IMG/VR virus record: IMGVR_UViG_2700989509_000007
DNA length: 15,711 nt
Origin: a virus
Lineage: Duplodnaviria > Heunggongvirae > Uroviricota > Caudoviricetes
Reading direction: 5' to 3' (one strand)
The position numbers were made by a program. Shown here in pieces: positions 9,001 through 12,000 of the stretch. How positions within the stretch are numbered: position 1 is the first letter of the stretch; each line of letters opens with the position of its first letter.

Positions 9001-12000
9001 AAGTTCAATATCCTGCTGGCAACTGGCGCAAGCTCTGCATCCACGAACAGCCAGGCGTCGCCGCTCATCTATCGGATCGCCACACTCGCAACAATGAGTA
9101 GCAGATGGGGCATTACAATCGGATTTGTATTTTTGCAGGGAGAAATTGCGCTGCAATTCTTCGATTTCAGCGGCGTTGTCGATGATATCTGCCATTTTCC
9201 TTTCCTTCAGGCATGAAAAAAGGAGCCGAAGCTCCTTTGGTTTTATAATTCGAATTGCCTTGCCCGCAGGCTTTTCAGCATTGGCATGGCCCGCTGGATA
9301 ACGGAACTTGACATGTCGAGACGTGTTACCTCCCTCAGTAGCGCGTCTCTGTTTTTCGTCACCGCATAGAAGGTTTCAAACGCAATGTCATACAGTTTAC
9401 TCGCGTATGATGAGTTAAGTCCCTTCAATATCGGGTACAGACGTTTGCAGATGTCCTGCGCATTCTCCATCTGTACCTGCATATAGCAAAGGAGGATGAT
9501 TTCTTCGTCTGTGAATTGCTGCGCTGGTTGCATGCTGCGAAGTTTTTTCTCGCACTCGATGAAGTATCGGCGTATCTGACGGCCTTTTTCGTTACGTTCA
9601 ACCATCGCCAGTTCTTTGGCTGTGTCGAGAGTGAGATGGTAGTCTTTTGCAGGACGACCTCTGCCTATTTTTTCCCGAACTTGGGAAATAATCATAAAGT
9701 CTTGATTTTCAACGAAACCATATTCAGCAATTCGTTCGACAATCCACGAAGCAAATCGCTTACCCACATCGAGGAAAGTGTGTAAATCACGGGCATTAAC
9801 GAGAAGAGTGGTTTCGTTGGATATAGTGCCGTTGAATACGGGGATGAGTTGACTGGTCATGATGACCTCCTTGTAAGTTTAGTTAGCTCAACCAGTTAGT
9901 AGCTGGTTGGTCGGGTGTCAACTGAGCCTTACAAGAAGCTCTGGGCATATTCCCCTTACGGGTATTGTATTACGCCTCTCCACCCGACCTTTGTACGGAT
10001 GTGACTATGCCGCATTACGGGCATAAAAAAGCCGCAAAGCTATCGGGTGCGGATGACCGCTTGTAAGTTCAGTGCGGTCAGTATGCGATAGCTCTGGCGG
10101 ATTTGTCAAACTATGAGAATATTGATGAACGAGTGACGGTATATACCCCACCCAGACAATTAACGTAAATTCACATCGTAAACTTGCGTTAATTGTCTGA
10201 AATATCAAGTTAAATCCCCTTAAATCTTTGGGGCACTATTGGGGCAAAATGTGGTTGTTTGGGGCATATTTGGGGCAAAAAAGAACGTATAAAGAACGGT
10301 GTAAAATCGATTTCTTCATGGTTAAAATGAGGTCTAACATATTGAAAAGTATATGCTCTTGGACGATCTTCGGTAATTCTGTGTTTTTAATGCTTCATGG
10401 AATGGACATGGTAGTAGGTTGCTCATGAATGCACTCCCTTGCGAAGTTGGTCTGCACAATGCAGCAGGGTGTCCGTCGCATATTTAAGCCTCACTAGCTC
10501 ACCATCATCCATTCCCGCGAGATTCGCGTGTTTAACGAACGCCGAGCAAAGGTCATTAAACGCCTGCGCCCGTACTTCAGCCAGAAAAGCATCGGTGGCT
10601 GGCGTTTCCCGTGAACGGTAAGACCAAACAATGTCGTCTGTTTCACTGGGTTCTTCATGAGAGCAATTTGGGCAGACAGCAGTACAACCAGCATGATCTT
10701 CTATGAGCATCTTCAGCCACGAGTTCTCCTCCGCCAGCGCTGAAAACTTCTCGTGTGCCAACTTAACAGCCGAATCAGCCTGCTTAATTGACTCAATCGC
10801 TTTCTGCTGGTCTTCGGACAGAGCCGAAATCTTGGCCTCCGCTTCAGCAAATTTACGCACAAGATATTCAGCATTTGTTTCGTTAACCTTTAAATCACAT
10901 GGGATGCATTTACCTTTCAGAAATCCATCCATCTCAATTAGTGTCATTTGTTTCATTTCTTCCCACTCCGCCACATCGCATTCAGATATTTGTTATCATT
11001 AACAGAGCAGAAACTCTTTCGCTTAAGCAATTCCTCTCTCGATGGCATTGGCTTTACGCGTTGGCGAATAATCATTTCTGCCGGAAGAATGCCGGGATTG
11101 TATGCAAGTCCTCTCATGGTAAATTCCTCAGTTATTACTGATAGCGCCATAGCGTGAGCGGTAATTACGCAGGCGCGGGTCGATATATTCAGGGAAGTGG
11201 GTATATGTGGATTTGCGGAATGGTCGGATTGATGTTTCGTTTATTCGGTCTTTTTCCTGTTTTTCTGCGAGTTGTATATCGCGTCGGTACTTCCGTTCTT
11301 CTTTTGTTTCTGGTGGCAGAGCAAGAAACGCGTCGAGATTATTCTTGATATTTTCCAGCACCTCCGATATGGAATTGCCGGAACAGCGGCGCGGGTCGTC
11401 CGCACCATATAGAGGCGCTGGCATGGTTTTCTCCTGATTAAATTGCGTGAATAGCGTGACGAGGGAAGGGGAGAGTTACTGGTGCAAAGGGTATATCGTC
11501 GTAAAAATCCATCGGAGGTTCGTTGTGTTGTGCAGGTGATGATTGCTGCTGTGGCTTCTGTGATTGCCTGCTGGCTGCTTGTTGTTTGCTGTCGCCAATT
11601 CCGCCAAGCATTTGCATCACGCCATTAATTCCGACATGAACCTCGGTTGTGTAACGGTCTTGCCCTGACTGGTCTTTCCACTTTCTGGTTCTCAGCATTC
11701 CCTCGAAATAAATCTGATCACCTTTTTTCACATACTGCCCCACAACCTCAGCCAGTTTCCCGGATACAGCAACACGATGCCATTCAGTCAATTCCTTTTG
11801 CTCGCCAGTATTTTTATCTCGCCATTGTTCTGACGTGGCTATTGTCAGGTTAGCGAACGCTGTACCTGATGGTGAGTATCGAACTTCCGGGTCTTGTCCT
11901 ACCCGACCAAGGATAATCACCTTATTTACGCCTCTGCTTGCCATTTATGCCGCCTGTTTTAGTTCGTTAACTCTGATGTTCATTACCTGAACGCATTTAG

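Follow-up and report, generated by a model that had tools for sequence, protein, structure and literature searches.

The C-terminal DDDIPF of the Escherichia coli single-stranded DNA (ssDNA)-binding protein SSB, with its free carboxylate, is the docking site for many host proteins. The pockets that receive this C-terminus (SSB-Ct) have a hydrophobic part that takes the terminal Phe, a basic lip that holds its alpha-carboxyl and a basic ridge facing the Asp residues; binding is abolished by deletion of the Phe, and also by RecG R474E, a change at a residue predicted to contact the alpha-carboxyl (PMC10164576). We analyzed a phage ssb gene whose reading frame runs through such a tip and adds 15 codons before the stop. 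The gene lies in a stretch of 15,711 nucleotides from a virus of the Caudoviricetes (IMG/VR record IMGVR_UViG_2700989509_000007), the whole of which is called the window hereafter. The extension is genuine and under selection, and tip and extension move together as a module.

Several described systems resemble this locus. The window protein is a lambdoid SSB-1, of the same family and at the same genomic position as Sf6 gp27 and ES18 gp48 (PMC12315714). Sf6 gp27 differs in that it ends ...DDSDIPF through insertion of gp26 after the Phe codon, the window carrying the uninterrupted allele. The 2025 survey of these proteins makes no mention of the extension, and counts the HNH nuclease among the probable members of the recombination module (PMC12315714). 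In phage HK620 the SSB is likewise found beside an annealing protein in an early-left recombination module, and its C-terminal residues decide the recruitment of Sak4 (Hutinet et al. 2018, PMC5928155). The HK620 SSB is however a distant homologue with a terminal tip (NDYPPF-COOH) and no extension, whereas the window-type extension is common to four annealing families. The SSBs of plasmid leading regions (F, pED208) are also mobile-element paralogues, and those of IncN and IncT plasmids carry the same type of extension; plasmid SSBs act on element ssDNA and suppress SOS (PMC8406263). T7 gp2.5 and T4 gp32 have disordered acidic tails which mediate protein contacts, but these tails end in acidic or aromatic residues, have no conserved hydrophobic/basic extension and belong to unrelated folds. 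Papers on the sensing of phage SSB by Retron-Eco8 concern T7 gp2.5 and were set aside as not relevant to this tail. No published description of the extension was found in a literature search that included the strings LPFPRH and IPFAP. What appears to be new here, at the sequence level, is a conserved C-terminal motif, specific to mobile elements, which makes the SSB-Ct internal, and an endonuclease gene inserted so as to separate the tip from the extension.

The ssb open reading frame (ORF) occupies positions 11438-11944 on the minus strand and its translated product has 168 residues. Compared with the E. coli-type SSB (...PMDFDDDIPF-COOH), the protein has the same PF00436 core (~70% identical to enterobacterial SSB structures), the same disordered Q/P-rich linker and the same PPMDF(D/Y)DDIPF element, but the tip is internal, 15 conserved residues follow the Phe, and there is no alpha-carboxylate at that place. 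For the mixed tetramers with host SSB which the earlier note envisaged, the pertinent observation is this ~70% identity of the core. The OB-fold core, for ssDNA binding and oligomerisation, covers residues 1-115 (11600..11944, minus strand) according to PF00436, SSBs of known structure and AlphaFold2. Residues 6-104 match the Pfam profile (E 1.6e-36), and PDB SSBs match the protein with E between 1e-52 and 1e-58 (best 2.9e-58), in alignments that stop at residue 153. In an AlphaFold2 monomer model built on a 64-sequence alignment the core is confident (pLDDT ~80-89), and residues 115-143 and 150-168 have pLDDT below 50, so that both linker and extension are predicted to be disordered. The linker itself, rich in Q, S and P, corresponds to residues 116-142 (11519..11599, minus), as delimited by this low pLDDT and by its low identity. 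It is followed by the tip, residues 143-153 (11486..11518, minus), whose last codon, TTT for Phe, is at 11488-11486. The extension proper, residues 154-168 (11441..11485, minus), was delimited by translation and conservation, and the TAA stop codon (11438..11440, read 11440-11438) coincides with a mosaic boundary in nucleotide homology. The earlier note had claimed that the frame continues past DDIPF for 15 residues, and translation bears this out, positions 11438-11485 being exactly 15 codons plus the stop. As expected for a bacterial-type SSB, the OB-fold profile and a disordered linker between core and tip were both found, but 15 residues come where a terminal DDDIPF with a free Phe alpha-carboxylate should be. 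Judged on its sequence, the window protein is therefore of the bacterial-type SSB family by core and linker, and lacks the terminal tip that defines the family.

Two details of the protein can be added. The tip reads DFYDDIPF instead of the usual DFDDDIPF, a Tyr replacing the first Asp of the DDD run (codon 148, TAC, 11501-11503). This Tyr is a minority variant, present in 2 of 110 relatives, 104 of which have Asp at this position; it was also seen at loci L081, L082, L137 and L154 and in P0057. It takes away one of the three Asp that touch the basic ridge of partner pockets. In the core, alignment to tetrameric SSBs indicates that W41, W55 and W89 are retained. F60, one of the four aromatic residues of E. 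coli SSB that contact ssDNA, is replaced by a Ser, Ser61 here (codon 11762-11764), as in most of the phage clade, where the region reads VAVSGK or VVISGK against VVLFGK in the host.

The conservation of the extension was then considered. As an open frame of 15 codons has a probability of (61/64)^15, or ~0.49, about half of random stretches of this length would contain no stop; it is conservation, and not the openness of the frame, which puts the read-through beyond chance. Among the closest proteins (120 clusters, at least 65% identity), 109 clusters contain full-length SSBs with the 15-residue extension, from Escherichia, Salmonella, Klebsiella, Citrobacter, Enterobacter, Kluyvera, Proteus, Moellerella and other genera, and a few close relatives end at DDDIPF. 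An identical or near-identical extension is present in the isolated phages mEp235, HK75, mEpX2, epsilon34, g341c and ECP1. At the nucleotide level the whole ssb including the extension is 97-99.5% identical in mEpX2, HK75 and mEp235; the last two carry the SSB of the window, with a difference of one residue in HK75. Across ssb the matches of epsilon34 and g341c are at 89%. Phage Huey matches at 96.7%, with an ssb that an inserted endonuclease gene interrupts. Homology to mEp235, epsilon34, g341c and NM-3 goes as far as the final base of the ssb stop (window 11438) and no further, and this break exactly at the stop codon shows that the extension belongs to the ssb module. Of 5426 complete E. 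coli genomes, 416 contain the 181-nucleotide tail region, under the plain annotation ssb.

The pattern of substitution points the same way. Mean pairwise identity among extended SSBs is 87% in the OB fold, 45% in the linker, 95% in the tip and 81% in the extension, the linker being the least conserved segment of the protein (column entropy 1.63 bits). The ratio of non-synonymous to synonymous differences (pN/pS, Nei-Gojobori) of the extension is 0.13 for 14 distinct nucleotide versions and 0.17 for a set of 19, and that of the tip across extended SSBs is 0.07. For a very divergent set (the window, an IncN plasmid, Cronobacter phage JK004, a Vibrio phage, Klebsiella phage KB57, E. coli phage vB_Ec-G1, Providencia and Mixta), pS is 0.78, a saturated value, against a pN of 0.33. 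From the window alone, it had been suggested that the extension could result from faulty sequencing or assembly, or from a recent stop-loss without function. The absence of a stop in half of random stretches and the few relatives ending at DDDIPF are what this explanation has in its favour. It is excluded by the recurrence of the same extension in independently sequenced phages, prophages, plasmids and metagenomes, and by purifying selection: the amino acids are kept while codons vary, next to a linker that diverges freely. We consider its probability as virtually nil. The earlier note had proposed alignment with relatives as the check, and had held that absence of the extension from all close homologues would speak against it; what was found is the reverse.

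To describe the extension outside the closest relatives, the tail alone was searched with tblastn. The consensus is A-P-[IV]-[TG]-L-[PQ]-[FY]-[PG]-[RK]-x-x-hydrophobic-[HY]-x-hydrophobic-COOH. Its length is 15 residues, rarely 16, and in SSB-type proteins it always comes directly after a host-type tip. It was found in 115 phage records, including virulent Vequintavirinae (KB57, PVP-SE1, GAP31, Mydo), Phapecoctavirus, phi92-like phages, JK004 and many Vibrio phages. Plasmid records with the extension number 103, of which 72 are conjugative, IncN and IncT among them. The SSB of the IncN plasmid pTR3 bears it (L364:2005-2538), and about 70 plasmids share the IncN type; the SSB of an IncT plasmid (L365:1494-2081) ends PIDFNDDIPFAGLGASFGKHTIHAIC. 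The extended ssb of IncN lies near antirestriction genes, an SprT-family protease gene and repA. Divergent extensions were observed in island-like loci, on SSBs adjacent to DUF3577 genes: IGFGYDCSRVAIHAL in L004 (779-1321), IGFGYGVPKSAIHAL in L007 and the 16-residue LGYGYGVCRGALYGIS in L046, a locus labelled Pseudomonas lundensis. Two other loci (L033, L060) have a related 16-residue variant, LGHGYGVSRKAIYAIS, of pattern LGHGYG[VI][SC]RKAIYAIS.

The presence of the extension on conjugative IncN and IncT plasmids raises the idea that, on plasmids and islands, it is a type IV secretion signal by which SSB is sent into recipients, the phage copies being due to exchange between elements. F-type systems do translocate plasmid SSB into recipients, but no signal was mapped to the SSB C-terminus (PMC8406263). 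Phages make up most of the carriers detected here; some of them are virulent and have no conjugation machinery, and selection acts on the motif in phages, which makes this idea very improbable.

The two halves of the motif suggest two other explanations. The beta-clamp motif has the consensus Gln, aliphatic, any, Leu, any, hydrophobic/aromatic, and the QLSLPL of Hda resembles the first half of the extension. This half (P-V-T-L-P-F or P-I-G-L-[PQ]-Y) could then be a motif of the QLxLxL/QL[SD]LF type that recruits or sequesters the host clamp. At the sequence level, both forms fit positions 2-6 of the consensus, with an aliphatic residue at 2, a small one at 3, an invariant Leu at 4, Pro at 5 and an aromatic at 6. 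Position 1 however lacks the hallmark Gln, and the variants IGFGYG and LGHGYG of the DUF3577-adjacent loci fit poorly. A clamp motif would also leave unexplained the fixed length of 15 residues and the conserved second half ([RK]-x-x-hydrophobic-[HY]-x-hydrophobic-COOH); we regard it as distinctly unlikely. The second half, basic then hydrophobic (R-H-A-I-H-A-I-COOH), is in a disordered region and always at the extreme C-terminus, as would be a degradation tag for ClpXP or Lon that makes the SSB short-lived or has its tail trimmed. MuA, recognized by ClpX, ends ...RRKKAI, and Lon prefers aromatic or hydrophobic stretches. But the terminal residues of the extension vary widely (HAI, YVI, HCI, HCF, SVM, LSC, YAIS), unlike a specific ClpX signal. 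Moreover a degron need not follow an intact tip, as the extension always does in SSB-type proteins, and the AP-x-[GT]-L-x-[FY] half would have no explanation. A degradation tag is accordingly given a low probability.

The extension is not restricted to one kind of N-terminal domain. Proteins of phrog_4477, phrog_2544 and phrog_3284 have a host-type tip followed by the extension, with a C-terminus of the form EPPMDFDDDIPFAPIGL[PQ]YGRNF[IL]HC[IF]. Examples are the 406-residue protein of KB57 (L168:1364-2584, phrog_4477) and the 308-residue protein of vB_Ec-G1 (L171:1658-2584). No PF00436 match was obtained for the N-terminal parts of these two proteins or of the phrog_2544/phrog_3284 proteins. 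They come from large virulent phages and are mostly annotated as 'hypothetical'; P0136, P0146, P0151, P0152 and P0154 belong to the same group. From their C-termini, the proteins of these three phrogs may be unrecognised ssDNA-binding or hub proteins. Among OB-fold proteins, two loci (L137:5647-6111 and L154:2764-3237) encode a very different core (MAINTITISGHVGKD...) with a tail identical to that of the window, Tyr included, the gene upstream in L137 being an ERF-family annealing protein. The tip-plus-extension cassette has evidently, from these sequences, been shuffled between distant OB cores. Some extended SSBs (L129-L134) have a core like that of the host chromosomal SSB and a Gly/Gln-rich linker (GGWGQPQQPQGGNQFSGG...), which suggests that the cassette was also joined to host-derived ssb copies.

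Other searches were less informative on prevalence. A full-length-alignment scan of genome contigs keyed on the OB fold and returned mostly tip-terminated SSBs, 7 of 80 loci being informative. A tail-profile search of a representative library at 50% identity gave 36 matches, many of them fragments, and served for spotting N-terminal domains and not for prevalence; in this library full-length extended SSBs probably cluster with canonical SSBs. The same profile retrieved almost only short partial proteins from a collection of 5.8 billion proteins, and was uninformative there.

This diversity of scaffolds bears on a possible action in cis, in which the extension would modify the contact of the tip with the OB fold or the cooperativity of SSB, and so tune ssDNA binding. 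A contact of the E. coli SSB tip with the DNA-binding site of the same protein has been reported (see the discussion in PMC5928155), and the extension puts basic and hydrophobic residues beside the acidic tip. No docking of the tail onto its own OB fold is however predicted in the AlphaFold2 monomer model, and the presence of the same tail on unrelated N-terminal domains argues against a co-adapted intramolecular surface. We think action in cis improbable.

A second result came from a contig scan for DNA encoding LPFPRH[AT]IHAI, which besides SSBs also found an endonuclease of ~155-160 residues bearing the extension at its own C-terminus (...KPIYPDE[AE]...). This endonuclease matches phrog_2340 (E 8.5e-46) over a profile which stops 16 residues before the C-terminus; it is His-Me/HNH-like and was not recognised in a Pfam search. 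Its gene sits exactly between the codon of the tip Phe and that of Ala154. The uninterrupted ssb reads ...GATATACCCTTT|GCACCAGTAACT... at this junction; interrupted alleles have, after the tip, TAG, a GGAG ribosome-binding site and then ATG. The 15 extension codons located 3' of the endonuclease are identical in nucleotides to those of the window. In the split allele the SSB therefore ends ...DIPF* with a free tip, changed to DDSDIPF or DDEIPF, and the endonuclease takes the extension as its own C-terminus.

Examples of the insertion are L161:4468-4947, phage Huey (L282:1078-1545), Sf6 (L363:1140-1619) and loci L283-L362. Retrieval with the endonuclease only gave 80 loci. In nearly all of them an SSB ending ...D(S/E)DIPF* immediately precedes it; of the 80 endonuclease ORFs, about 65 continue into the extension and the others have unrelated short ends. 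In Sf6 the gp27 SSB ends EPPMNFDDSDIPF* and the gp26 endonuclease carries the extension; the GenBank note on gp26 already mentions 14 residues identical to 'E. coli SSB'. Huey has the same split arrangement, with an SSB equal to that of the window over residues 1-144. Several relatives which seem non-extended (P0010, P0012, P0013) thus appear to be interrupted extended alleles: for P0013 the interruption was confirmed on DNA, and for P0010 and P0012 it is deduced from the shared ...DDSDIPF end. In the P0013/Sf6 type a remnant of the extension lies ~490 nucleotides downstream, at the end of the inserted endonuclease ORF, and no such remnant was found downstream of tip-terminated relatives of the P0007 type.

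The phrog_2340 gene shows presence or absence at a precise site, its own stop, ribosome-binding site and start, and an altered flanking target, and it looks like a free-standing insertion of the homing-endonuclease type targeting the 3' end of ssb. The junction between tip and extension is a natural module boundary. Non-synonymous changes in endonuclease-borne extensions hit conserved positions (L5F, F7Y/H, R9H, H13N), whereas those of SSB-borne extensions are at variable positions only; this relaxed constraint on the endonuclease-borne copies is a trend which is not significant (Fisher p = 0.18). As Sf6 and Huey are viable with a free-tip SSB, the extension is accessory and not essential.

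We examined the correspondence between the extension and the neighbouring annealing genes. In 67 of 87 loci, the extended SSB is preceded by a Rad52-type annealing gene. The other upstream genes are ERF (L132, L137), AAA_24/Sak4-like (L005, L133, L134), RecT (L008) and DUF3577 (L004, L007, L046), and in 8 loci an inserted HNH_3 gene. The latter encodes an endonuclease of 155 residues (PF13392) and is placed between the Rad52-type gene and ssb (L081, L083, L090, L094, L095, L097, L102, L119; also mEpX2). With the phrog_2340 site and the HNH_3 site, the recombination module has been invaded by nuclease genes at two separate places. The gene downstream of the extended ssb is in some cases Abc2, in others an Rv2179c-like exonuclease or a different gene.

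In nearly all phage loci ssb is immediately downstream of the annealing gene, and the extension could then be a docking site for the element's own single-strand annealing protein, in the manner of the last six residues of HK620 SSB, which are needed by Sak4. Besides this precedent (PMC5928155), Red-beta is known to bind the SSB-Ct (PMC6393309). However, the type of tail does not vary with the annealing family: an identical extension is found with structurally unrelated Rad52-type, ERF, AAA_24/Sak4-like and RecT proteins, and also beside DUF3577 and plasmid genes. Extended SSBs are also met in plasmid and island-like settings with no adjoining annealing gene, and the same is true of the two virulent phages whose neighbourhoods were read. 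Conversely, close relatives terminating at DDDIPF are found in these contexts as well, beside the same Rad52-type and AAA_24 genes. Pairing with four families makes the adjacent recombinase an unlikely specific partner, and docking of the annealing protein is unlikely as the function of the extension. More likely, given these gene contexts, the partner is a factor conserved across hosts, or the effect is intrinsic to SSB.

Our preferred reading, to which we give a probability of roughly 0.4, is that the extension is a short linear motif which mobile elements of gamma-proteobacteria (lambdoid and P22-like prophages, virulent myoviruses, Vibrio phages, island-like loci and plasmids) append to a host-identical SSB tip, and which acts as a specificity switch. 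By making Phe153 internal, the extension would take away the free alpha-carboxylate by which the tip is held in the basic lip of host SSB-interacting proteins, and the canonical docking of partners such as RecO, ExoI, RecQ, PriA and chi would be weakened. Such altered recruitment of host enzymes by an abnormal tip, which the earlier note had anticipated, is consistent with the published pocket rules (PMC10164576). The tip is the most conserved part of the protein and must still be used. Tip and hydrophobic/aromatic/basic extension would then make up a single composite peptide of ~26 residues, disordered, which docks with altered specificity; its partner would be conserved across hosts and would not be the adjacent recombinase. 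Expressed from the early-left operon together with the annealing protein and Abc2, the element SSB would coat ssDNA that is handled differently from ssDNA coated by host SSB. Recombination or replication intermediates could be shielded from RecO/RecFOR-RecA, ExoI, RecJ/RecQ or PriA, and RecA loading and SOS could be damped on incoming or replicating element ssDNA.

Several points weigh against this specificity switch. Blocking host partners needs only the loss of the tip, yet the tip is the most conserved segment, so that pure masking fails to explain the data. The partner of the composite peptide is postulated, and the AlphaFold2 monomer model is uninformative on partners. Phages with the endonuclease-split gene have a free tip and are viable, and close SSBs ending DDDIPF share the same genomic contexts, from which the extension is dispensable under some conditions. 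Lambdoid SSB-1 proteins have not been studied experimentally (PMC12315714). A bolder form of the specificity switch, which we hold as possible but doubtful, is that of a 'super-tip' (EPPMDFDDDIPF-AP-x-[GT]-L-x-[FY]-x-[RK]-x-x-hydrophobic-[HY]-x-hydrophobic-COOH). This composite peptide, grafted on unrelated ssDNA-binding scaffolds, would capture or block one conserved host hub of genome maintenance (such as the beta clamp, or some of the SSB-interacting proteins) and so mark element ssDNA, with endonuclease insertion toggling between masked and free tip.

The gene content of the window places ssb in the early-left (pL) operon of an E. coli lambdoid prophage, as read from profile matches and gene order. 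On the minus strand the order is: the N antiterminator, a gp17-like exclusion gene, the Rad52/Rad22-type annealing gene, ssb, Abc2, DUF2737, Ead/Ea22 and an AntA-type antirepressor; an integrase beside a tRNA-Arg ends the series. The N-type antiterminator (14188..14607, minus; PF25694 N_peptide, E 6.2e-26) marks the start of the operon. The annealing protein has 235 residues (11945..12652, minus; PF04098, E 1.8e-25); its gene directly precedes ssb, shares its frame, and ends with a stop codon that adjoins the ssb start. Directly downstream of ssb is Abc2, an anti-RecBCD protein of 98 residues (11128..11424, minus; PF11043, E 3.9e-44). It has its own ribosome-binding site, AGGAG at 11431-11435, 3 nucleotides past the ssb stop, in an intergenic sequence which reads TAATCAGGAGAAAACCATG. 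The DUF2737 protein is the next gene of the operon (10953..11150, minus; PF10930, E 7.7e-29). At the other side of the window, the tRNA-Arg(CCT) (4301-4375) is flanked by two integrase genes, one IntS-like (2973-4175, minus) and another at 4496-5740 (plus). The left part matches genes annotated as type III effectors in E. coli SMN197SH3, NleH1-1 (~1066-1947) and NleD (2178-2876). This gene content suggests that region 1057-5740 contains two prophages or islands side by side at one tRNA. A last feature, at 14873-15697, extends to the window edge.

These results have consequences for annotation: pipelines call the extended proteins plain SSB, and several tip-bearing phage families 'hypothetical'. 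As the isolated phages mEp235 and HK75 are available and the split alleles of Sf6 and Huey are natural controls, the question is testable. The extension may be of use in recombineering design, since SSB tails decide the compatibility of annealing proteins with SSB, and may bear on the anti-SOS strategies of conjugative plasmids and on drugs aimed at SSB-Ct pockets. The SSB tip is the textbook hub for replication, repair and recombination proteins, and its terminal position with a free carboxylate is regarded as essential. The extended family, found in phages, plasmids and islands alike, runs counter to the idea that the tip has to be terminal. A host-identical tip under a fixed motif of 15 residues implies either a second docking mode, or mobile elements that withhold their ssDNA from host enzymes.

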